Shown piece after piece: positions 3,031 through 31,162 of a stretch of DNA of 64,000 nucleotides. This DNA is from an uncultured Solirubrobacterales bacterium. Its GTDB lineage: Bacteria > Actinomycetota > Thermoleophilia > Solirubrobacterales > Solirubrobacteraceae. Within the stretch, counting starts at the first letter, position 1, and every line of letters starts with the position of its first letter. The translations under genes were made by a program, and so were the position numbers. The stretch lies in the NCBI GenBank assembly GCA_963718545.1, contig CAVQZO010000003.1, positions 591,187-655,186 on the forward strand, given 5' to 3'. The notes beneath the pieces were generated by a model. That model did no database searches and was not told the DNA's origin. It saw only the letters and a list, made by a program, of their open reading frames with translations.

Positions 3031-4077
3031 TCAGGTGGTCAAGGTCACCTTGCTGAGCCCATGCGGCCGGTCGACGTCGACGCCGGCAAGCTCACCCAGC
3101 CGCAGAGCCGCCGCCTGTCCCGGAATCACGGCCAGCAGGGGCGCCAGCCACTCCGGAACCTGCGGAACAAGCACGCCAATGTCAGCTGCGCGCAAAAGGT
3201 CAGCGCGGTCGGTGACCGCGACCGTGAGACCGGAGCTGGCGCCGATCACTTCCAGATCACGGCGGTCCGGCTGGTCACGACCCGACGTGCCGATCAACCA
3301 CAGCGCCCCGGCCTTACTCAGCCCCGCGATCGGTCCGTGGATCAGGTCGGGCAACGAGAACGCCTCGGCCACCACACCGCCCAGCTCGCGGAGCTTCAAC
3401 GCAGTCTCGTATGCAGTTGCCATCTCCAGCCCGCGCCCCACAGCGGTAATCACACCGCAACGGGCCAGGCGGTCGAAGCGCCCACGCTCGCCCAGCTGAG
3501 ACGCGACCATCGACTCCACCAGGCCAGGCAGGGCCCCGAACCATTTGCGCCGATCGGCGTCCGGAGACAGGCACTCGGCGATCTGAGCCATCGCGTGCAG
3601 GGAGGCCAGGTAGGTCTTCGTGGCCGCCACGGAACGCTCCTGGCCGGCCAGCATCTCCACCACCACATCGGCCCGGTCGGCGAGCCGCGACTCCGGGTGG
3701 TTGGTGACAACCACGGTCGGGCGCCCCTGTTCAGCGGCCGCCTCGACGACCGAAGCGATGTCCGGGGAGCCCCCCGACTGGGAGATGGCTAGAACTGCGC
3801 CACGCGAAAGGAGCGGCGGCGAGGCGCCTCCGAACAGCCAGGGCGCGGCAAGGCCGACCGGAAGCCGGGCCTCCACCCCCAGCAGATATTGGGCGTACCG
3901 GGCGGCGTTGTCTGACGTCCCGCGGGCGACGATCATCAGGTAGTCGACGTCGCTTCGGCGCAGCAGCGCCGCCGCCTGCTCGGCGCTCCGCCAGCCCGGG
4001 CCCTCGCGGGAACCGAGCACCTCGGCCTGCTCGCGGATCTCCTGCTCCAGGTAGCTGGGTGTGGCATGACCAGGCAC
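3031..4077 (-). CDS. SIS-domain protein, GlmS C-terminal-like; probable glucosamine-6-phosphate deaminase (NagB-II type)
   Basis: ARGTSDNA, ISQSGGS, ATKTY, ALKLRE, HGP and terminal LSKVTLTT motifs; no glutaminase domain; divergent from a sugar ABC operon. Confidence 0.8.
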   Translation of the reverse strand: MPGHATPSYLEQEIREQAEVLGSREGPGWRSAEQAAALLRRSDVDYLMIVARGTSDNAARYAQYLLGVEARLPVGLAAPWLFGGASPPLLSRGAVLAISQSGGSPDIASVVEAAAEQGRPTVVVTNHPESRLADRADVVVEMLAGQERSVAATKTYLASLHAMAQIAECLSPDADRRKWFGALPGLVESMVASQLGERGRFDRLARCGVITAVGRGLEMATAYETALKLRELGGVVAEAFSLPDLIHGPIAGLSKAGALWLIGTSGRDQPDRRDLEVIGASSGLTVAVTDRADLLRAADIGVLVPQVPEWLAPLLAVIPGQAAALRLGELAGVDVDRPHGLSKVTLTT

Positions 4078-18771: not shown

Positions 18772-18945
18772 GTGACCCGCTTGCCCGACGACGAATTCGA
18801 TACTCCCTCAGGACAGGTCTGCTGGCTGTGGTGGGCCGCCGAGTCCGAGGAGGCGCGGCAGAGGCTCCTGGAGGCGATGACCGGGGAGGCTGGTCAGCCG
18901 CTGGACGCAGGCGCGGCGCGCCAGGTACTGGCCGCGGCGCGTTGA
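18772..18945 (+). CDS. Possible 57-aa small protein (not in ORF track)
   Basis: AGGAG 11 nt before GTG; MTRLPDDEFDTPSGQVCWLWWAAESEEARQRLLEAMTGEAGQPLDAGAARQVLAAAR; its 3' part overlaps the antisense pabB end. Confidence 0.3.
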   Translation: MTRLPDDEFDTPSGQVCWLWWAAESEEARQRLLEAMTGEAGQPLDAGAARQVLAAAR

Positions 18946-20987
18946 CCCTCCGCAAGCGCCCGGCAGATCTGGACGGCCTGAGGCGGCAATGGCCGCCCCG
19001 CCAGCGTGGCGGGGTGGGGGCCCCGCAGGCTCGAGGTGAGCACGATCGCGTCTGCCCCCGCCAGCTCCGATAGAGAGAGATCGCGCAGACAGGTCTCCCA
19101 GCCGGCGCGGCCGGCGGCGGTCAGCAGGCGCTCGCGTGACAGCGAGGGCAGCAGCCGGCCGTCCAGCGGCGGCCCGAGGATGCGCTGACCCGTCACGACC
19201 AGGACTGCGGCGTAACCGGCTTCGAGCACGCTGCCATCGCTGTCGCAGATGAGCGGGGTCACGCCCGCTCCGGAGTGGCTCTCGATGAGCCCGCGGTCGG
19301 CCCACTTGTGCCGGCCGAGCCCCCCGGGCACGGCCACGGCAAGCAGTTCCATCGGCACGGCCTGCGGCAGCGGCCTGGTGGCGATGCGCAATCCAGATGG
19401 GTCGACGGTGATCCGCAGACCGCCGTTGCTCAGCTGCGCGGCTGCGCCGGCGATTCGGGCTTCGATCTCGCCAGGCAGGCTCAGTCCGAGCTCGCCGCAA
19501 CTGGCCGCCAGCCGGGTCAGATGGTCGGGCAGATGAATCGTGTGGCCGCCCGCGACCAGGATCGTCTCGATTACGCCCTGCGCCGGGTCCGGCCGGTCCG
19601 CCCGGTTGAACGGAATCCGCGCCGGCGTTGCTGCCATGTGCTCGCCTCCGAGCGCCAGGCCGGCGGCATCCGCCACACCGCGGGCCTTGGTGAGCGCTTC
19701 GGTCACCTCGGCCTCGGGCGAGGAGTCGGACACGATTCCTCCGCCGACGCCCAGCCAGAGTCGTCCGCGGGCCAGCTCCAAGGTCCGGATCGCCACGTTG
19801 AGCTCGAGCCCGGCGACCGGCGAGCACAGGCCCACCGCGCCGCAGTAGGTCTCGCGGGCGCTGCCCTCCAGCTCGTGGATCGTTCGCAGCGCCTGGACCT
19901 TCGGTGCGCCGGTCACCGAGCCGGGCGGGAAGGTGGCGCGCAGCAGCTGTGAATCGGTCACCTTCGGTCTGAGCTCCCCGTGCACCGACGACTCGAGCTG
20001 CCAGACGCCGGGGGCCTCGCGAAGGGCGCACAGCTCCTCGACGGTGATCGAGCCGTACCGGCACACCCGCCCGAGGTCGTTGCGCATCAGGTCGACGATC
20101 ATCACGTTCTCCGCCCGGTCCTTCTCGCTGGAGATCAGCAGCTCCGGGTCGGACGCGATCGGCGCGGTGCCCTTGATGGGGCGGGTGAGGACCCGGCGAC
20201 CGGTTCGCTTCAGGAACAGCTCGGGCGAGAGGCTCACCACCGCGTGGCCGGCGTCGCCGGGCGCGACGTACGCCGCATACGCCGTCCGGCCGGCGGTGGC
20301 CGCCGTTGCCCACAGGTCCAGCGGATCGCCCTGGAACCGAGCTTCGAGGCGCAGACACAGGTTCGCCTGCGAGTGCTCGCCCGCGGCGATCCGCTCGATC
20401 GTCTCGCTGACCACCGCGCGATGACCGGCGAGCCCGGCCCCGACCGGCGTCAGCGGCTCCGCCTGGAAGCTCCGGACGGGTGGCGCGTCACCGGCCAGGC
20501 GTGAGCGCCAGCAGGCCAGACGCTCGCTCAGCAACTCGTCGCGGGCATCTGTCCACAGCGCTTCGAACCACCAGCTCCCATCCGCCTTCCGGAGCACCAC
20601 GTGGTCGTGAAAGGCCAGATCGAACGACGGCAGCACAATCTGTTGCGGCGGCGCCGGAGGCACTCGCTCCACGGAGCGCGACAGACCGAAGCCCAGCCAG
20701 CCAAACCAGCCCCCGGCCACCGTGACACCGCGGTCGGCGCCGTCGAGCTCGAGCCCGAAGGGCAGCGAGTCAAGCGCGGCGAATGGATCATCATCCGCCG
20801 CTACCGACAGAAGCGGGTGGGAGGAGAGGATTGTCGTGGCGCCTAGCCAGGCGCCACTCAGCGCCACCCCCCGGGGCTCGTCGCGCAGCCAGCCCGCCGC
20901 ACGTATGCCATCAACGTCGCCGGGCAGCCGCTCGCGCAGTACACGAGCTGTCGGGCGGCGCCCATGGCGGTCCCTGACGACTGACAC
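18894..20987 (-). CDS. pabB: Aminodeoxychorismate synthase component I fused to a class IV aminotransferase/ADC lyase domain
   Basis: SLSPELF, RPIKGT, KDRAENVMIVDLMRND, FPPGSVTGAPK, then RHKWADR (PLP Lys) and LLPSLSR. Confidence 0.88.
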   Translation of the reverse strand: MSVVRDRHGRRPTARVLRERLPGDVDGIRAAGWLRDEPRGVALSGAWLGATTILSSHPLLSVAADDDPFAALDSLPFGLELDGADRGVTVAGGWFGWLGFGLSRSVERVPPAPPQQIVLPSFDLAFHDHVVLRKADGSWWFEALWTDARDELLSERLACWRSRLAGDAPPVRSFQAEPLTPVGAGLAGHRAVVSETIERIAAGEHSQANLCLRLEARFQGDPLDLWATAATAGRTAYAAYVAPGDAGHAVVSLSPELFLKRTGRRVLTRPIKGTAPIASDPELLISSEKDRAENVMIVDLMRNDLGRVCRYGSITVEELCALREAPGVWQLESSVHGELRPKVTDSQLLRATFPPGSVTGAPKVQALRTIHELEGSARETYCGAVGLCSPVAGLELNVAIRTLELARGRLWLGVGGGIVSDSSPEAEVTEALTKARGVADAAGLALGGEHMAATPARIPFNRADRPDPAQGVIETILVAGGHTIHLPDHLTRLAASCGELGLSLPGEIEARIAGAAAQLSNGGLRITVDPSGLRIATRPLPQAVPMELLAVAVPGGLGRHKWADRGLIESHSGAGVTPLICDSDGSVLEAGYAAVLVVTGQRILGPPLDGRLLPSLSRERLLTAAGRAGWETCLRDLSLSELAGADAIVLTSSLRGPHPATLAGRPLPPQAVQICRALAEGQRAAASTWRAAPASSG

Positions 20988-23932: not shown

Positions 23933-25245
23933 GTGGCGGAGGAGGCGGTTCCGGCCACCGGCTCTCCCAGCTGCAGAACGAGCCAGATGCGGCTCGGATC
24001 GAGCATCAGTTCGGGGTGCGCGACGGCGTCACCGTCGATCACCAGCAGATCGGCGAGCCGCCCGGGCGCGACCATGCCGACGTAGTCCTGCAGCCCCAGG
24101 GCCGTGGCCGCCACCGACGTCGCCGCGCACAGCGCCTCGGTGGCGCTCAGACCGTGATGGATCATGCGGACGAGCTCGAGGCCGGCGTCACTCCCCGAAA
24201 CCCCTTCGCGGTCCGAACCCAGCGCGATCATCACGCCGGCGTCGCGGGCTGCGCGCAGGCTGCGGCTGCCCTGCTCCAGGTTGTGGTGGGCGAGCTCCAC
24301 GAGGCTCGGCAGCATCTCCGGATCGATCGCCGCACCATCGGGATCGACCGCTTCGCCCAGGCCGCCCATCCAGTAGTAGCCACTCAGCGTCGGCACGAGC
24401 ACCTGCCCAGCCGCGGCCATCTGTTCGAGCAGATCCGGCCGCTGGTTGAGGTACATCCCGTGCTCGATCGTATCCATGCCGTGGTTGATTGCCGCCGCGG
24501 TGCCGTCCAACCCCTCGACGTGCGCGGCGACTTTGACGCCCATCCGGTGCGCCTCGTCAACCAGCGCGGCGAACTCCGCGTCCGTCAGCTGCGTCGGATC
24601 GGGGTCCTCGAGCTCGTTTGACCGCGCCCCCGTGGTCATCACCTTGACGAAGTCCGCCCCCTCTCTCAGCTGCTCGCGAACCGCCTTGCGCATCTCATCC
24701 GGGCCGTCTGCCTCGCGGTACATGGCACCGTAGAAGCGTCCGCCGGGGGCCGTGGCCGAGATGATCAACCCGCAGGTCAGCAGTCGCGGACCGCGAAACG
24801 CTCCGTAGCGCATTGCCTGGCGCGCCTCCTGCGGTTGCAGATTCTGCGAGCCGACGTTTCGGAGTGTCGTGACCCCCATCGCCAGCGTCTCCCGCAACGC
24901 GGCGTGCAGGAAGTGGGCGCTGGTTCCGGTCAGTATCGGCTCAGCGCCGCGCGCGCCCGTCGGCCGCTTCCCCTGGACGTGAACGTGGGCGTTGATGAGT
25001 CCTGGCATCAACATCCGGTCCTGGAGATCGAGCACGCGGGCGCCCTCGGGCACGGGGTCGCTCGCGCGTCCCACACGCTCGATGATCCCGTCCGAGATCA
25101 GCACTGCCGTCTGGTCGCGAACCGGGCCGCCGCTTCCGTCAAACAGCCGGGCGCCCGTCAACCACAGCCGACCCTCGGAGGCCGGCGGGGCAGCCAGCAG
25201 CGATGGGTGACGGTGGGGCACGCTGGGATTATGCAGCGTTTCCAT
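23929..25245 (-). CDS. Metal-dependent amidohydrolase (prolidase/imidazolonepropionase-like)
   Basis: MPGLINAHVH, VKVMTTGA, VAAH, IEHG, LGSD, GRLADL motifs. Confidence 0.92.
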   Translation of the reverse strand: METLHNPSVPHRHPSLLAAPPASEGRLWLTGARLFDGSGGPVRDQTAVLISDGIIERVGRASDPVPEGARVLDLQDRMLMPGLINAHVHVQGKRPTGARGAEPILTGTSAHFLHAALRETLAMGVTTLRNVGSQNLQPQEARQAMRYGAFRGPRLLTCGLIISATAPGGRFYGAMYREADGPDEMRKAVREQLREGADFVKVMTTGARSNELEDPDPTQLTDAEFAALVDEAHRMGVKVAAHVEGLDGTAAAINHGMDTIEHGMYLNQRPDLLEQMAAAGQVLVPTLSGYYWMGGLGEAVDPDGAAIDPEMLPSLVELAHHNLEQGSRSLRAARDAGVMIALGSDREGVSGSDAGLELVRMIHHGLSATEALCAATSVAATALGLQDYVGMVAPGRLADLLVIDGDAVAHPELMLDPSRIWLVLQLGEPVAGTASSAT

Positions 25246-25287
25246 ATCGCCCCCCGGAGTCGCCTGGCTCCCAGGTATCGTGCGCCG

Positions 25288-26253
25288 ATGGGCGCTACCG
25301 GGAAACTGTTAGCCGCGGCGCAGCGGCGGCTCGGGCTCGGCCTTCGGCGGGCGGGCCTTGCCACCCGGCGGGACATCAACGAGCTGCGCGAGGAGCTGCG
25401 GCAGTTGGGTCCGAGCTCGACGAGGCTTGACGAACTCGGCGCTCAGATTCGGTGGCTGGACGATGCTCGCAGTGGGTTCTCCGAGCGCATCTCTTCACTG
25501 GAGCAGCTGACGGCACTCGATGCGGTCACGCGGTTCGTGCGCCAGGTTCGCCTGGGCGACGAGCCTCTCGTGTCGGTCGTGCTGCCCACGTTCGACCGGC
25601 CCGAGCGCCTGAATCGCGCGATCGCTTCGGTGCTCGACCAGCGTTACGAGAACTGGGAGCTGCTTGTTGTGGACGACGGTGGCACCCGGGACCTGCAGGC
25701 TGTGGTGGTTGCGGATGATGACGAGAGGATCCGCTGGAGCCGGATTGATCACGGCGGCGCCTGCGCGGCTCGGAATCATGCCTTGCGAATGGCCAGAGGC
25801 GACCTGATCGCCTACTTGGACGATGACAACGTGATGGATCCGGACTGGCTGTTTTCCGTGGTGTGGGCGTTCGGGCAGCGCCCTGACCGGGACGTGCTCT
25901 ACGGCGCCTTCGTGATCGACGATCTCTCGCGGGTCAGCGACAAGGCTGCCTCGGGAGAGCTCCCGCGCGTGATTCTGTATCCGTTCAGCCGTGACGGCCT
26001 GCGCAAGTCGAACCTTGCCGACACCGGGTCGATCGCCCACCGTGCCGGATTGTCCGCGGCGGTGTGGGACGAGAGCCTTCGAGAGATGGGGGACTGGGAT
26101 CTGCTGCTGCGGCTGACCGCTGACCAGGATCCGCTGGTGCTTCCGGTGATCGCTCACTACTACACCACCGATGCACCGGACCGGCTGACGAACGGTCCGA
26201 CACACGCGGCGGACCTGGCGAAGATCCTCAGTCGCGGAGCGGTGTCATCCTGA
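25288..26253 (+). CDS. Glycosyltransferase family 2 with N-terminal coiled coil
   Basis: VSVVLPTFDRP, VVDDG, ARN.AL..ARGD.IAYLDDD, DWDL. Confidence 0.9.
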   Translation: MGATGKLLAAAQRRLGLGLRRAGLATRRDINELREELRQLGPSSTRLDELGAQIRWLDDARSGFSERISSLEQLTALDAVTRFVRQVRLGDEPLVSVVLPTFDRPERLNRAIASVLDQRYENWELLVVDDGGTRDLQAVVVADDDERIRWSRIDHGGACAARNHALRMARGDLIAYLDDDNVMDPDWLFSVVWAFGQRPDRDVLYGAFVIDDLSRVSDKAASGELPRVILYPFSRDGLRKSNLADTGSIAHRAGLSAAVWDESLREMGDWDLLLRLTADQDPLVLPVIAHYYTTDAPDRLTNGPTHAADLAKILSRGAVSS

Positions 26254-26273
26254 CCAGCCGCGGCACCCGGGTC

Positions 26274-27905
26274 GTGATGCTCGGGTTCGACGCGATGGAT
26301 CCGGCTCTGACGATGCAGCTGGCCGCCGCGGGTCGTCTGCCGACGTTCGCGCGGCTGCTGGGGGAGAGCTCTCGGCGCCCGACTCAGAACCCGCCGGGCC
26401 TGTTCGTCGGAAGCCTGTGGTCCACGTTCTTCACCGGACGGACTGCGGCCGAGACCGGCTTTCACTGCTGGGAGGAGATCGTTCCGGGCGGTTATGACAG
26501 GCGCGTCACGACCGCGGCGTCGATTCGCGGCAAGCCCTTCTGGGAGGCGCTCAGCGAGGCTGGGCGGCGCGTCGCCGTTCTGGACGTTCCGCACTCGCGG
26601 GCCGGAGCGTCACTGAATGGCGTACAGGTTTCGGAGTGGGGCTGCCACGACCGCCACTTCGGGCTGCGCAGTCACCCGCCCGGGCTCGCGGAGGAGCTGG
26701 TCGCGCGCTACGGGATCCACCCGGTCCTCAGCGTCGATCCCTTTGCCGAGCGCGAGTGGGCGCCCGACGACTATGTCTTCCGCGACGGCCGGCTGCGGAC
26801 CACCGCCGAGGAGCGGCAGCTGCTCGAAGCGCTGCTGGCCGGGGCCGATGCAAAGCGCCGGATGGGCGTGGATCTGCTCGCCGACGGTCCGTGGGATCTG
26901 TTCTTGAGCGTGTTTGGCGAGACGCACAGCGTCGGCCATCAGTCCTGGCATCTTCACGACTCGTCGCACCCCCGCTTCGACCCTCGCGCGCGTGATGTGG
27001 TTGGCGATCCGGTTGTCCAGGTCTACGAGAAGATGGACGAGGCGCTGGCCGCCCACGTCGCACACATCGACCCGGACGCGACCCTGCTCGTGCTGCTCAG
27101 CCACGGGATGGCGGCGCATCATGACGGCACCCATCTGCTCCCGGAGATCCTGCGCCGGCTTGACGCCATCCACCGGGCGGTGGGCCTGGGGCGCTCTCGG
27201 GGTGGACGTGCGCTGGGCAGCGCGTGGAACGCGATGCCGCCCGGGCTGCGCGCCGCGAGCCGGAAGCCACTCGCGGCATTGCTGCGCCGGCATCGCGGCG
27301 AGCGTGAATTCGAGGCTCCACCGGAGTACGAGACACCGGAGCAGCGTCAGACCCAGGCCTTCTTCATGAGCCCGAACAACTACGCGGTCGGCGGCGTGCG
27401 CTTCAACCTCGCCGGCCGTGAGGCGAGTGGGCGCGTTCAGCCCGGGCGCGAGCTCGGCGAGCTGTGTCGTCGTCTCCAGGACGATCTGCTGGCGCTCGTC
27501 AACGTCGATACCGGTACGAGCGTGATCGATCGTGTCGAGCGTTCGGATGCGCATTACGAGCGCGCGGCGCTGGATGGGATTCCGGACCTGTTCCTGCAGT
27601 GGAATCACCAACATCCGATCGAGACCGTTTGGTCGCCCCGCTTCGGGATGATCGGCGGTAGATACACCCACTGGCGCACGGGGGATCATTCACCGGAGGG
27701 GCTGCTGCTGGAGCGATCTCCTCGGGTGGCGGCGGGCTCTGAACTGCCACCCATCGCGATCCATGAGCTCGGTGCGATGATCTCAGCCGAGCTGGGCGTT
27801 ACATCGGTGTTATCGACCGTCCAGTACAGGCCGGGCGGACCGCCGCCAGCCAGGCCGGGGGCCGCTACCCGTAGACCAGTGATCCCTGGGCCTGAGCGCG
27901 GGTGA
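26274..27905 (+). CDS. Alkaline phosphatase superfamily / type I phosphodiesterase-like protein
   Basis: LGFDAMD, WSTFFTG, ETHSVGH, SHG, GDH metal-binding-type motifs. Confidence 0.8.
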   Translation: MMLGFDAMDPALTMQLAAAGRLPTFARLLGESSRRPTQNPPGLFVGSLWSTFFTGRTAAETGFHCWEEIVPGGYDRRVTTAASIRGKPFWEALSEAGRRVAVLDVPHSRAGASLNGVQVSEWGCHDRHFGLRSHPPGLAEELVARYGIHPVLSVDPFAEREWAPDDYVFRDGRLRTTAEERQLLEALLAGADAKRRMGVDLLADGPWDLFLSVFGETHSVGHQSWHLHDSSHPRFDPRARDVVGDPVVQVYEKMDEALAAHVAHIDPDATLLVLLSHGMAAHHDGTHLLPEILRRLDAIHRAVGLGRSRGGRALGSAWNAMPPGLRAASRKPLAALLRRHRGEREFEAPPEYETPEQRQTQAFFMSPNNYAVGGVRFNLAGREASGRVQPGRELGELCRRLQDDLLALVNVDTGTSVIDRVERSDAHYERAALDGIPDLFLQWNHQHPIETVWSPRFGMIGGRYTHWRTGDHSPEGLLLERSPRVAAGSELPPIAIHELGAMISAELGVTSVLSTVQYRPGGPPPARPGAATRRPVIPGPERG

Positions 27906-29016
27906 TCGGCCGCTTGCCCCAGCGGCTGTGCGTGGCGAAATCCAGCAGCCGATCCAGGTAATCGCTAAGAGGCGTGGCGTGTATCCCCAGAGGCTCGAGC
28001 AGGGCCCGGGTCTGGCGGTTGTCGAACCTGGTCTGCACTGAGAAGTACGGGAAATACGCGGCGGCTTCGGCGAACACCCGTTGGCGCACCGGGTCCACGG
28101 CGCCCAGATCGAAGTCCGCCGGGGGGATGAGCTGCGGGGTCGGCTGGTCGAAGTAGTCGCTGGCGATCGAGGCGATCTCGCCGAGGGTGGTCGTGGCCGC
28201 TCCGGCCGTCAGGTGGTAGGTGTGACCGGCAGCGTCCGGGTGGCCGGCGAGGGCGTGGATCGCATCGGCGACGTAGTCGACAGGGACGACATCCACCGGC
28301 GACGTCGGGACCGCCGGTACCGCGCTGAGCAGGCCCTTCGAGAAGGCGCGGAGGGGCCAGTAGATGACGTTGAAGGCGGCCGTCCAGCCAGTCGCGCGGT
28401 CGCCGACGACGATGCTCGGGCGCAGAACGGTTACGGGCAGGCGCTGGGTTGCCCGCAGCAGCAGCTCTGCCTCACATTTGGACTGCTCGTAGGGGTTGCG
28501 GAATCCCTGACCCAGATACAGGTCCTTCTCGAAGAAGCGGCCGGGATGCGTTCCGGACACGAACGCCGTCGAGACGTGGACATACCGCTCCAAACCTCCA
28601 CGCTGCATTGCGCTCTGGGCGAACGAGAGCATTTCGCTCGTGCCGCCGACGTTGACCTCCCGGGCGCACGCAAGCGACTGGGCGAACGAGACGGATGCGG
28701 CACAGTGCACGACGGTTCGGGTGCGCTCAGCCAGCTCGCGCAGCTTCTCGTCAGGTAGTCCAAGGCCCGGCCGGGAAACGTCCGCTGCAATCGCCTGTAC
28801 CCGTCCTTCGTGGTCGGCCGCGGGGTCGCCCAGGGCGTCCGCGATCGTGTCGTCGATCCGCTGCTGAGCCCGCTCGTCATCAGGGGCGCGGACCAGGGCG
28901 ATGACGTCCCGCGTGTCCTGCTGGAGGCAGCGAACCAGCACTTCGATGCCCAGGAAGCCGGTTGCCCCGGTGAGGAGAAGCTCGCCCCCTGGATCGGTGT
29001 GAGGTCCTGGCGTCAC
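27865..29016 (-). CDS. Thioester reductase / fatty acyl-CoA reductase-like extended SDR
   Basis: TGATGFLG, HCAASVSF, HVSTAFV, YEQSK (YxxxK), RPSIV. Confidence 0.85.
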   Translation of the reverse strand: MTPGPHTDPGGELLLTGATGFLGIEVLVRCLQQDTRDVIALVRAPDDERAQQRIDDTIADALGDPAADHEGRVQAIAADVSRPGLGLPDEKLRELAERTRTVVHCAASVSFAQSLACAREVNVGGTSEMLSFAQSAMQRGGLERYVHVSTAFVSGTHPGRFFEKDLYLGQGFRNPYEQSKCEAELLLRATQRLPVTVLRPSIVVGDRATGWTAAFNVIYWPLRAFSKGLLSAVPAVPTSPVDVVPVDYVADAIHALAGHPDAAGHTYHLTAGAATTTLGEIASIASDYFDQPTPQLIPPADFDLGAVDPVRQRVFAEAAAYFPYFSVQTRFDNRQTRALLEPLGIHATPLSDYLDRLLDFATHSRWGKRPITRAQAQGSLVYG

Positions 29017-29945
29017 GCGGCGGCGCTCGTGAGGTCGGGCAGGTCGCGGTTAGTGGAGACCTGCTCGCGAGCAGCTTGCCGCGTCGGGCTGATCTCGATC
29101 ACGTTCCATGCCAGGTGAGTCCGGCGCATCAGGCGGATCACCCATCCGGTCGGGTCGAGCAGAGCCTCCGAGGGCCTGAGCCCGTGGAAGGCGGAGCGGG
29201 CGAAGGCGTGATGGTTGTGGTGCCAGGCCTCGCCCAGCGATGGCAGGGCCAGCCAGATCACATTGGTGGAGTGGTCATCGATGGCGAAGCGCCGGCCACC
29301 GAAGAAGTGGCAGACGCTGTTCACCGACCAGGTCAGGTGGTGGATGAGGAAGACGCGGACCAGGCCGCCCCAGAGCAGGGCGGTCAGCGCGCCGACCCAG
29401 GTGCCGGTCAGCGCCAGCCCAAGCAGGAACGGGAGCACGAACGTCCCCAGGGCCAGCCAGTGATAGTGGCGATGGAGGCCCCGCATGAACGGGTCCTCGT
29501 AGAGCTCAGGCGCGTACTTGCGCCCGTCAGCCTGCCCCTGGGTCCGCCACAGCCAGCCCACGTGGGCATGCCACAGGCCACTCAGGCTGCCGCGCAGTCC
29601 GGCGCCGCGACCGACGTGGGGGCTGTGGGGATCTCCGTCGCGATCTGTGTGCGCGTGGTGCTTGCGGTGGTCGGCCACCCAATCCGACGGCGAGCCCTGC
29701 AGGGCGAGTGCGCCGGCCAGCGCCAGGCCGCGCTCCACGGTGCGATAGGTCGCAAACGCGCGATGTGTCATGAGCCGGTGGTAGCCGACCGTGATCCCGA
29801 ACCCCGTGATCAGGTAGAGCGCCAATCCGATCAGCACGTCATACAGATGCAGGGCACTGCCCCACAGGATCGGGACGCTGACGGCGATCCCGAGCGGAGG
29901 GATCAGTACCGCGGCGAGGTTGACGTTTCGTTCAAGCCGAGTCAC
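29013..29945 (-). CDS. Membrane acyl-CoA/acyl-lipid desaturase (delta-9 type)
   Basis: His boxes GYHRLMTH, DHRKHH, WHHNHH; DPHSP; NSVCH. Confidence 0.92.
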   Translation of the reverse strand: MTRLERNVNLAAVLIPPLGIAVSVPILWGSALHLYDVLIGLALYLITGFGITVGYHRLMTHRAFATYRTVERGLALAGALALQGSPSDWVADHRKHHAHTDRDGDPHSPHVGRGAGLRGSLSGLWHAHVGWLWRTQGQADGRKYAPELYEDPFMRGLHRHYHWLALGTFVLPFLLGLALTGTWVGALTALLWGGLVRVFLIHHLTWSVNSVCHFFGGRRFAIDDHSTNVIWLALPSLGEAWHHNHHAFARSAFHGLRPSEALLDPTGWVIRLMRRTHLAWNVIEISPTRQAAREQVSTNRDLPDLTSAAA

Positions 29946-30019
29946 GAAACCTAGACTACGAAACAAATTCGACTGCTTCTCGGTCAGATATAGACAGATG
30001 CCAGGTCATTTCTTATGCT

Positions 30020-31162
30020 GTGGACATAAGACCTGGCCTTCATCCTGCGGCCGCCGCCGCAATCGAGCCGCACCTGTCCGAACTCGCCGAGGAGATCATC
30101 GCGGCGATCCGAGAGGAGGTGCCCGTCTATGCGGGTCCGCTGAAGGGGCCGTTCGGCGAAGGGATCCGTCAGGGTGTGGTCCAGGCGCTGACCCGGTTCC
30201 TGGCCGGCAACGAGCCCGAGGCAGACTCCGGCCGCATCAATCGGGCACTCGGGCGCGGCGAGCACCGGGCCGGCCGTAGTCTCGATGCCCTCCAGGCGGC
30301 ATACCGGGTCGGGGCGCGGGTCGCCTGGCGGCGAGTGAGCCGGCTGGCGGCCGAAGCCGGCGTTCCTGTCGAGAGCCAGCACGAGCTGGCCGAAGCGATC
30401 TTCGCCTACATCGACCAGCTCTCGGCCGAATCGGTGGAGGGTTACGCACAGGCCCAGGCCGCCCAGGCCGCCAGCCTCCAACGGCACCGAGAAGAGATGC
30501 TGAGGCTGCTCACCGCAGAGGCCCCGGCCCCGCTGCAGAAGCTGCAGGACGCAGCGGCACGAGCGGAGTGGCGACTTCCGCCCCGGATCGCGATGATCGC
30601 CTGCGAGCCGGATGCCACGGCGAGGATCACCCGCCTCCTCAGTGGCCACGCGATCCACTCCGCGGACCAACTCCAGGGCCACATCTGCACCCCGGAGTCC
30701 GGACGCCTGGACCAGGAACTGACCGCCGCAGCGCGCCGGCACCACGTGGCGATCGGGCTCGGACCAACCGTCGCGATCACCGAAGCCAATCGCTCCGCGC
30801 GCTGGGCACTGTTGGCCATGCGGAGCGCTGAACCCGGCGGTGTCGTCCAAGCCGACCAGCAACTGGAGCGGCTGATCCTCGGCGCCTCCCCGGAGATCGC
30901 CACCGCGCTCCGTCTGCAAGCCCTCCAGCCACTCGACCATGAGACCCCGGCCAGCCGTAAACGCCTCGAAGGAACTCTGCTCGCCTGGCTTCGCCACCAC
31001 GGTGCCCAGGCCGCCATCGCGGCCGAACTCGGCATCCACCCGCAGACGGTTCGTTACCGGATGGGCCGGCTGCGCGAGTTGTTCGGGCCGGACCTGGACA
31101 ACCCGGACAAGCGCTTCCAGCTACAGCTGGCCCTGCACGCAGCCAGCCAGGCGGGCGGTTGA
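30020..31162 (+). CDS. PucR/CdaR-family transcriptional regulator
   Basis: GRSLDALQAAYRVGAR; C-terminal HTH AAELGIHPQTVRYR. Confidence 0.92.
   Translation: MDIRPGLHPAAAAAIEPHLSELAEEIIAAIREEVPVYAGPLKGPFGEGIRQGVVQALTRFLAGNEPEADSGRINRALGRGEHRAGRSLDALQAAYRVGARVAWRRVSRLAAEAGVPVESQHELAEAIFAYIDQLSAESVEGYAQAQAAQAASLQRHREEMLRLLTAEAPAPLQKLQDAAARAEWRLPPRIAMIACEPDATARITRLLSGHAIHSADQLQGHICTPESGRLDQELTAAARRHHVAIGLGPTVAITEANRSARWALLAMRSAEPGGVVQADQQLERLILGASPEIATALRLQALQPLDHETPASRKRLEGTLLAWLRHHGAQAAIAAELGIHPQTVRYRMGRLRELFGPDLDNPDKRFQLQLALHAASQAGG

Follow-up and report, generated by a model that had tools for sequence, protein, structure and literature searches.

A three-gene locus of an uncultured Solirubrobacterales bacterium, in which a membrane fatty acid desaturase gene and a putative acyl thioester reductase gene overlap beside a divergent PucR-type regulator gene, raises the question of whether the two enzymes form a dedicated route to unsaturated fatty alcohols or only share a promoter. 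The locus lies within a 64,000-nucleotide stretch of contig CAVQZO010000003.1 (positions 591,187 to 655,186 of the forward strand, assembly GCA_963718545.1), hereafter the window, which has a G+C content of 66-73% and comes from a 3.86-Mb Solirubrobacteraceae assembly of four contigs that is 95% complete. Our analysis identified the reductase as a gene that once closed fatty acid synthesis operons and was relocated a single time to a place behind the desaturase, where it may have become part of a wax ester pathway.

The regulator gene and the features of the two enzyme genes are the following (positions in the window):

30020..31162, plus strand: regulator of the PucR family, MabR-type by predicted fold; 380 amino acids; helix-turn-helix domain HTH_30; start codon uncertain
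29013..29945 (mechanical open reading frame (ORF) to TTG 29966), minus strand: desaturase, 317 amino acids from the TTG; PF00487; SCD1/DesA3-like, probably of acyl-CoA type
29763..29780, minus strand: His box 1, HRLMTH (residues 63-68), aligned to the HRLWSH box of SCD1
29655..29669, minus strand: His box 2, HRKHH (residues 100-104), aligned to SCD1
29307-29321, minus strand: NSVCH (NxxxH) motif, which aligns with the N/H ligands of SCD1
29208..29222, minus strand: His box 3, HHNHH (residues 249-253), aligned to SCD1
29013..29016, minus strand: GTGA stop/start overlap of the desaturase stop with the reductase GTG, translational coupling
27865..29016, minus strand: reductase, putative fatty acyl-CoA/acyl carrier protein (ACP) reductase, an extended short-chain dehydrogenase/reductase (SDR) of the fatty acyl reductase (FAR) type; 383 amino acids; PF07993
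28948..28971, minus strand: nucleotide-binding motif TGATGFLG; G17, G20, F21 and G23 unchanged across 27 homologues
28564-28572, minus strand: STA with the catalytic Ser/Thr (S149, T150), invariant in 27 homologues
28477..28491, minus strand: catalytic motif YEQSK (Y176, K180), invariant in 27 homologues

Each structural element that the sequence-only reading had described here was borne out. The desaturase matches PF00487 and carries the HRLMTH, HRKHH and HHNHH boxes; the stand-alone thioester-reductase SDR is a 383-amino acid ORF (29016..27865, minus strand) that scores 195.9 bits against PF07993 (NAD_binding_4; cut-off 20.1) over the full model (positions 1-258); the GTGA overlap is read at 29013-29016; and the PucR regulator (HTH_30, PF13556; 73.5 bits against a cut-off of 27) diverges across a spacer of 74 bp (29946-30019), a length that assumes the GTG at 29945 as the desaturase start. 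No intrinsic terminator was found 3' of the reductase gene, which converges on a phosphodiesterase ORF with an overlap of 41 bp between the 3' ends.

The complete triad, with the regulator divergent from the desaturase and the reductase behind the latter, is present in six loci: the window and five metagenomic loci whose reductases share 91% (L021), 84% (L031), 78-83% (L024/L027), 73% (L022) and 72% (L030) identity with that of the window. All six have a 4-bp ATGA or GTGA junction between the two enzyme genes, and in L030 the triad is kept although the flanking genes are entirely different from those of the window. Since it recurs in five other loci at 72-91% identity, always with the 4-bp junction, the triad is more than a chance neighbourhood. 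A maximum likelihood tree inferred from 60 reductase sequences groups the desaturase-linked ones into one clade (SH-like approximate likelihood-ratio test (SH-aLRT) support of 100) with a long stem branch (0.40), sister to a genus-level group linked to fatty acid synthesis (fab) genes (support of 99); as these reductases form a single clade, one relocation accounts for them.

Elsewhere in the family, the reductase has another setting. Homologues occur in 58 of 151 family genomes (a tally that includes the unpublished genome G043, no locus of which was used), and we sampled 40 loci from about 25 genera, all outside the desaturase-linked clade. None of these has a desaturase within 6 kb of the reductase homologue, and in 17-18 of the 40 the homologue (45-58% identity) closes a fab operon. 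The full operon reads fabH-fabG-acpP-fabF-accD-fabI-reductase, with fabI placed just upstream of the reductase by Pfam scan, and its last junction is often a 4-bp overlap. Within the same genus of the Genome Taxonomy Database (GTDB), the orthologue (53-58% identity) is almost never near the regulator or the desaturase, the gene order being fabH-(acpP)-fabF-carboxyltransferase-reductase-GAF histidine kinase-LuxR response regulator. The fab operon of the window's own genome (fabD-H-G-acpP-F-I, C2:1094690-1099553) has no reductase, and no other thioester-reductase-type protein was found in this genome; of the next PF07993 matches, one is a tandem GalE-like protein and the other is HpnA-like, and as sugar enzymes both were rejected as candidates.

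A second lipid setting was found in five loci (L038, L041, L043, L048, and L073), where a co-directional gene for WS/DGAT (wax ester synthase/diacylglycerol acyltransferase; PF03007 and PF06974) adjoins the reductase homologue, in both gene orders. WS/DGAT is the only lipid-product enzyme that recurs next to the homologues. The window's own genome encodes four WS/DGAT enzymes, none of them in the window.

To define what is conserved around the desaturase, 40 relatives from six sampled families of Solirubrobacterales were searched for all three proteins. At least 20 of the 40 relatives, from four of the six families, have regulator and desaturase genes as divergent neighbours, as confirmed on retrieved loci, and one genome (G015) carries the pair twice. 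The order-wide conserved unit is the regulator with the desaturase, and the reductase is a late recruit to it. The desaturase/reductase pairing, for which the sequence-only reading had called for a synteny survey, is thus conserved within the six-locus clade, junction included, and absent from the loci sampled elsewhere; it is not a general dedicated system.

The reductase itself was assessed by its motifs and its predicted fold. Alignment of the 27 homologues showed TGxTGFxG, S149/T150, and Y176xxxK180 to be invariant. The AlphaFold model (predicted local distance difference test (pLDDT) of 85.7) has as its best Foldseek match the reductase (R) domain of MxaA (4u7w; template modelling (TM) score of 0.75 over about 385 columns), with further matches to a polyketide synthase (PKS) thioreductase of Streptomyces (8v1x), the rice FAR DPW (7eoz), and the R domain of a carboxylic acid reductase (CAR). 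The top structural matches cover the C-terminal subdomain as well as the Rossmann domain. The proposed identity as a fatty acyl thioester reductase is supported by these invariant motifs, by the R-domain- and FAR-like model and by the homologues at the end of fab operons or next to WS/DGAT genes, and a long-chain fatty acyl-CoA/ACP reductase is the best reading of such contexts, motifs and predicted fold. The protein is best described as belonging to an uncharacterised single-domain clade of NAD_binding_4 reductases.

The R domains of PKS, nonribosomal peptide synthetases (NRPS) and CAR, which act on phosphopantetheine-bound acyl thioesters, match the model over its full length (MxaA, 4u7w; S. 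coelicolor, 8v1x; CAR, 5mso; TM 0.69-0.77) and have the TGxxGxxG motif and the T/Y/K residues in common with it. In contrast to them, the window reductase (24-25% identity) stands alone, without a carrier-protein, adenylation or synthase domain, and its neighbours are primary fatty acid genes and not a natural-product cluster.

With a probability of roughly 55%, we read the locus as a two-gene lipid operon whose desaturase and coupled acyl reductase lead through unsaturated fatty alcohols to wax esters, under MabR-type control and after a single relocation. Ancestrally, the reductase gene would have closed the fab operon; it would have moved once, in this clade, to a place behind the desaturase, and this move would have put it under the divergent MabR-type PucR regulator, which would control the desaturase throughout the order. 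The desaturase would produce cis-monounsaturated acyl-CoA. The reductase, predicted to be a soluble, single-domain, NAD(P)H-dependent enzyme made in fixed proportion to the desaturase, would act on long-chain acyl thioesters of CoA or ACP and yield the aldehyde, which it would most likely reduce further to the fatty alcohol; unsaturated acyl-CoA may be channelled from one enzyme to the other. The alcohols would then be converted by one of the four WS/DGAT enzymes, whose genes lie elsewhere in the genome, into wax esters whose chains are unsaturated and low-melting, and the regulator would set expression by the acyl-CoA pool through a palindrome within the 74-bp control region.

This partly upholds what the sequence-only reading had put forward. 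For a dedicated route to unsaturated aldehydes or alcohols speak the genes, their coupling and the kind of reductase; against it speak the restriction of the pairing to one narrow clade and the fact that the widely conserved pair is that of regulator and desaturase. Among the end products that it had named, wax esters are the most likely, because the genome has four WS/DGAT genes, and nothing points to ether lipids or a signal.

Several points weigh against the wax ester operon. WS/DGAT enzymes also make triacylglycerol, and therefore four copies are no proof of wax ester synthesis; moreover, the WS/DGAT-linked reductase homologues fall in a different sub-clade of the tree (about 47-50% identity), and no account of fatty alcohols or wax esters from Solirubrobacterales turned up in our literature searches. 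Since the pairing is confined to one narrow clade and the reductase occurs elsewhere without a desaturase, a preference for unsaturated substrates is not required. The ancestry in the fab operon points to an acyl-ACP substrate, whereas the type of desaturase points to acyl-CoA. At the level of family models, the reductase scores below the cut-offs of the TIGR01746 thioester reductase (166.6 against 213.35 bits) and of PRK07201 (175 against 549 bits, with only positions 3-351 of 657, the N-terminal half, matched), and the C-terminal "sterile" domain of FARs (PF03015) is not among its Pfam matches at E <= 0.01.

The main rival explanation, which we regard as a minority possibility, is that the two genes share a promoter and no pathway: the desaturase would adjust membrane chains, the reductase would draw on the general acyl-ACP/CoA pool, and the relocation would have changed only the timing of expression. 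This explanation is favoured by the ancestral place of the reductase in the fab operon, by its occurrence without an adjacent desaturase in 40 of the 40 loci sampled outside the clade and by the wide distribution of the regulator/desaturase pair without the reductase. However, the 4-bp overlap is kept in six of six loci across 72-91% identity despite changed flanks, and the long stem of the relocated clade fits a change of function. A desaturase of the same group is also found near the reductase or fab cluster in two other arrangements, 4.3 kb from the reductase in L004 (desaturase-histidine kinase-response regulator-fabH-accD-reductase) and directly downstream of it in L034. In addition, known actinobacterial acyl-CoA reductases, the Mycobacterium tuberculosis enzymes FCR1 (Rv3391) and FCR2 (Rv1543) that feed wax ester synthesis, prefer oleoyl-CoA (PMC3522743).

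A different use of the same coupling, which also draws on the long stem (0.40) and which we consider unlikely, is that the reductase, once relocated, became specialised for the cis-unsaturated acyl-CoA that the desaturase produces. Its product would then be one defined unsaturated fatty compound, an alcohol or an aldehyde, that serves in the envelope or as a signal, and not bulk wax, and the operon would be under a MabR-type switch that senses acyl-CoA or, via its globin-like domain, redox state or gas. If this were true, the operon would be the bacterial counterpart of the insect desaturase-to-reductase route. In the moth pheromone route, an acyl-CoA desaturase is followed by a fatty acyl reductase, so that unsaturated fatty alcohols arise from acyl-CoA by the same two kinds of enzyme, one after the other (for the desaturase side, see PMC8063362). 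The genes of this eukaryotic route are unlinked and its products are signals, whereas the locus studied here is a prokaryotic operon with a likely storage lipid as its product.

It is also rather improbable that the aldehyde or alcohol is released for a use other than wax, in alkyl or alkenyl ether lipids, in an envelope lipid or as a diffusible signal. R-domain-like enzymes can stop at the aldehyde, the CAR R domain is among the best structural matches, and genes for Zn-dependent alcohol dehydrogenases (cl20) lie near the homologues in a few loci (L052 and L068). Yet no ether-lipid gene, AGPS-like or other, stands next to the approximately 60 homologues examined, where the one recurrent lipid-product neighbour is WS/DGAT, and the best structural match, MxaA, performs a full four-electron reduction to the alcohol.

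Finally, it is highly improbable that the protein is a sugar-nucleotide or sterol-type extended SDR with coincidental lipid neighbours, since its scores under the TIGR01746 and PRK07201 cut-offs, its weaker Epimerase, RmlD_sub_bind and 3Beta_HSD matches and the sugar epimerases from Foldseek rank 27 onward are outweighed by an Epimerase-family score (60 bits) far under that of PF07993, by ranks 1-26 that are all thioester reductases or FARs and extend at the top to the C-terminal subdomain, and by three independent lipid contexts (fab operon, WS/DGAT, and desaturase) that are hard to explain otherwise.

The preferred reading, a desaturase-coupled reductase that feeds wax ester synthesis, resembles the known pathways of FAR and WS/DGAT (Marinobacter Maqu_2220/Maqu_2507; M. 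tuberculosis FCR1/FCR2), in which acyl thioesters are likewise reduced with NAD(P)H to alcohols that WS/DGAT esterifies, as is predicted here. Reductase and WS/DGAT genes frequently adjoin each other, an adjacency observed in the five homologue loci and in marine scaffolds (PMC10351704). Unlike these systems, the window has a 383-amino acid single-domain reductase without the "sterile" domain, and no WS/DGAT gene. To our knowledge, coupling to a desaturase has not been described for the known FAR and WS/DGAT systems.

As for the mycobacterial enzymes, Rv1543 and Acr1 are counterparts of the C-terminal part of Rv3391 (PMC3522743). The length of the PRK07201 model suggests that it describes the same two-domain kind of protein as Rv3391, and the window reductase is not to be equated with Rv1543, because it matches the N-terminal half of this model. 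Nearly all relatives hold a two-domain reductase homologue of 650-750 amino acids (30-34% identity, PRK07201-like length); with the reductase as query, none was found in the window's own 95% complete assembly.

Our analysis of the desaturase showed a score of 66 bits against PF00487 (cut-off 29.7, Pfam scan) and similarity to the mouse and human acyl-CoA desaturase 1 structures (4ymk, E = 1.6e-22; 4zyo, E = 4e-19). The HX4H, HX2HH, and HX2HH boxes and the Asn/His di-iron ligands of transmembrane helix 4 all align to 4ymk, and a Kyte-Doolittle scan, a crude test, gave two hydrophobic hairpins (residues 14-63 and 168-211). The GTG at 29945 is a likelier start than the TTG at 29966, because relatives align from residue 8. 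With 88.5 bits against a cut-off of 400, the protein is not a member of the DesA equivalog family NF049918. It is probably a membrane di-iron desaturase of the acyl-CoA type, with predicted delta-9 specificity; oleate-type fatty acids are typical of this bacterial group. With mammalian SCD1 it shares the three His boxes, the N/H ligands and a four-helix membrane topology. DesA3 is the mycobacterial acyl-CoA delta-9 desaturase, and Rv3230c is its electron donor of the ferredoxin-reductase type; unlike DesA3, the window desaturase has no adjacent gene for such a donor. The reductase was ruled out in this role, being an SDR without a flavin or iron-sulfur domain.

Some desaturase homologues of about 840-1020 amino acids (among P0133-P0142, from several metagenomic contigs in which assembly errors are possible) are fused to AMP-binding acyl-CoA synthetase domains (PF00501), and these fusions fit acyl-CoA as the desaturase substrate. 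In other homologues of this group the fusion partner is a TetR, radical SAM or methyltransferase domain, with the same possibility of assembly errors. The window's own genome has four desaturase paralogues; the three outside the window (C2:1075990-1076865, C2:1936791-1937612, and C2:2395737-2396603) share 47-52% identity with the window gene, and none adjoins a PucR gene.

Two apparent desaturase-reductase fusions, P0124 (L022) and P0126 (L034), were rejected as Rosetta stone evidence, as they are gene calls across frameshifts on contigs prone to error and indicate adjacency only; P0126 is a read-through on the L034 contig, where nearly every gene is frameshifted. In L022 (3026-3974), the desaturase is split by a frameshift near 3733, and its first 236 codons run in frame into the reductase, which gives the 693-amino acid P0124. 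Either the frameshift stems from faulty sequencing or the gene is truly inactivated; His box 3 would be lost.

The regulator matches MabR (Rv2242; 9f80) by sequence in its C-terminal half only (E = 5.8e-8). Its model (pLDDT of 88.7) has the same structure, which comprises MabR residues 161-414, at Foldseek rank 1 (E = 3.6e-7), and the predicted N-terminal domain resembles sensor domains of globin type (5ohf and 4zvb; target TM scores of 0.65-0.73). The Pfam scan of the window regulator (P0003) found neither RsbRD_N nor GGDEF_2; in precomputed tables, RsbRD_N and PucR-like_N are present in the regulator orthologues of L030 and L031. By predicted fold only, we assign the regulator to the MabR type, with a globin-like N-terminal domain, a GGDEF-like middle domain and a PucR helix-turn-helix. 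This architecture has been described for MabR, and as largely restricted to Actinomycetia (PMC11617747). In MabR, the regulator of the fas-II operon, DNA binding is modulated by C18-C24 acyl-CoA (PMC12845086). MabR combines the same predicted fold with a response to acyl-CoA and is thus a direct precedent for the suggestion that the regulator may sense an acyl ligand; by analogy, the window regulator probably responds to long-chain acyl-CoA. Like MabR, it has three modules by fold and adjoins a lipid gene that it presumably controls; unlike MabR, its presumed target is a desaturase and not the fas-II operon, and the host belongs to the Thermoleophilia. A second PucR paralogue of this genome (C2:165237-166364) has no desaturase beside it.

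The features between the divergent genes are the following:

29946..30019, no strand: divergent control region of 74 bp with three conserved blocks (alignment of six loci)
29953..29970, minus strand: conserved block 1, with the -10-like TAGTCT at 29958..29953; kept in five of six loci
29991..30019, plus strand: promoter-like site of the regulator gene (TAGACA, 17 nt, TATGCT), from a promoter scan; hexamers in conserved blocks
30011..30031, no strand: candidate operator, imperfect palindrome TCTTATGC-N5-(G/A)CATAAGA (alignment of six loci)

The alignment of the control region of the six loci defined the three conserved blocks. The -10-like TAGTCT stands only 7 nt before the desaturase GTG at 29945, which suggests a leaderless desaturase mRNA. 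On the other side, TAGACA-17 nt-TATGCT is the only promoter-like match in 27700-30200 (0.1 expected by chance), and it coincides with blocks 2 and 3. An 8-5-8 palindrome, TCTTATGC-N5-GCATAAGA, overlaps the -10 hexamer of the regulator gene and its annotated GTG; it is perfect in L022 and has 7 of 8 matching positions in the window, L021, L030, and L031. Since the GTG at 30020, inside the palindrome and right after the -10-like hexamer, is kept only in the window and L021, the true start of the regulator is uncertain. The palindrome is probably the binding site of the regulator, and the predicted layout fits autoregulation combined with action on the divergent desaturase promoter, both from a single site.

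Literature searches on PucR and desaturases, on Solirubrobacterales and ether lipids, and on bacterial operons of acyl-CoA reductase and desaturase found no description of this arrangement. To present knowledge, three elements are undescribed: the clade of single-domain reductases encoded last in the fab operon, their coupling to a desaturase within one clade, and the order-wide pair of MabR-type regulator and desaturase, found outside the class to which that regulator architecture was said to be mostly confined. All components are of known kinds, and the locus is a regrouping of known enzymes and not a new system; none of these findings overturns current knowledge. Nonetheless, they single out a candidate enzyme of neutral-lipid metabolism, so far unstudied, in Solirubrobacteraceae, which are abundant and rarely cultured soil actinobacteria. 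It is a compact acyl reductase with one domain, whose gene usually belongs to a fatty acid synthase operon. In the clade, a single rewiring has joined this gene to a desaturase and to a MabR-type regulator, which amounts to a natural experiment. For engineered hosts, a reductase that is short and soluble and comes coupled with a desaturase could be of use in the production of unsaturated fatty alcohols, and the order-wide regulator/desaturase pair, with its 74-bp control region and one palindrome, could be a simple system for the study of MabR-type lipid sensing.

In most same-genus genomes, a GAF histidine kinase and a LuxR response regulator are encoded 3' of the reductase (e.g., L001:8404-10188), even where upstream fab genes are absent (L032:9513-11283). 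The window's own genome has such a pair at C2:1088629-1090423, about 5 kb before its fab operon. Together, the two proteins may form a two-component system dedicated to regulating the fab/reductase cluster.

Within the window, the interval 24835-27905 holds two genes between an amidohydrolase gene and the reductase gene, namely a family 2 glycosyltransferase (GT2; approximately 25250-26253, with its start probably near 25250) and a phosphodiesterase of the alkaline phosphatase (AlkP) superfamily (26274-27905). Both are present in L027 and absent from L021, where the amidohydrolase gene lies directly 3' of the reductase; this distribution points to a recent insertion, and the absence from L021 ruled them out as members of the desaturase-reductase unit. 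At 18894-20987 on the minus strand, the window also encodes a 697-amino acid protein in which a PabB-like, chorismate-binding domain is fused to a class IV aminotransferase domain similar to aminodeoxychorismate (ADC) lyase.

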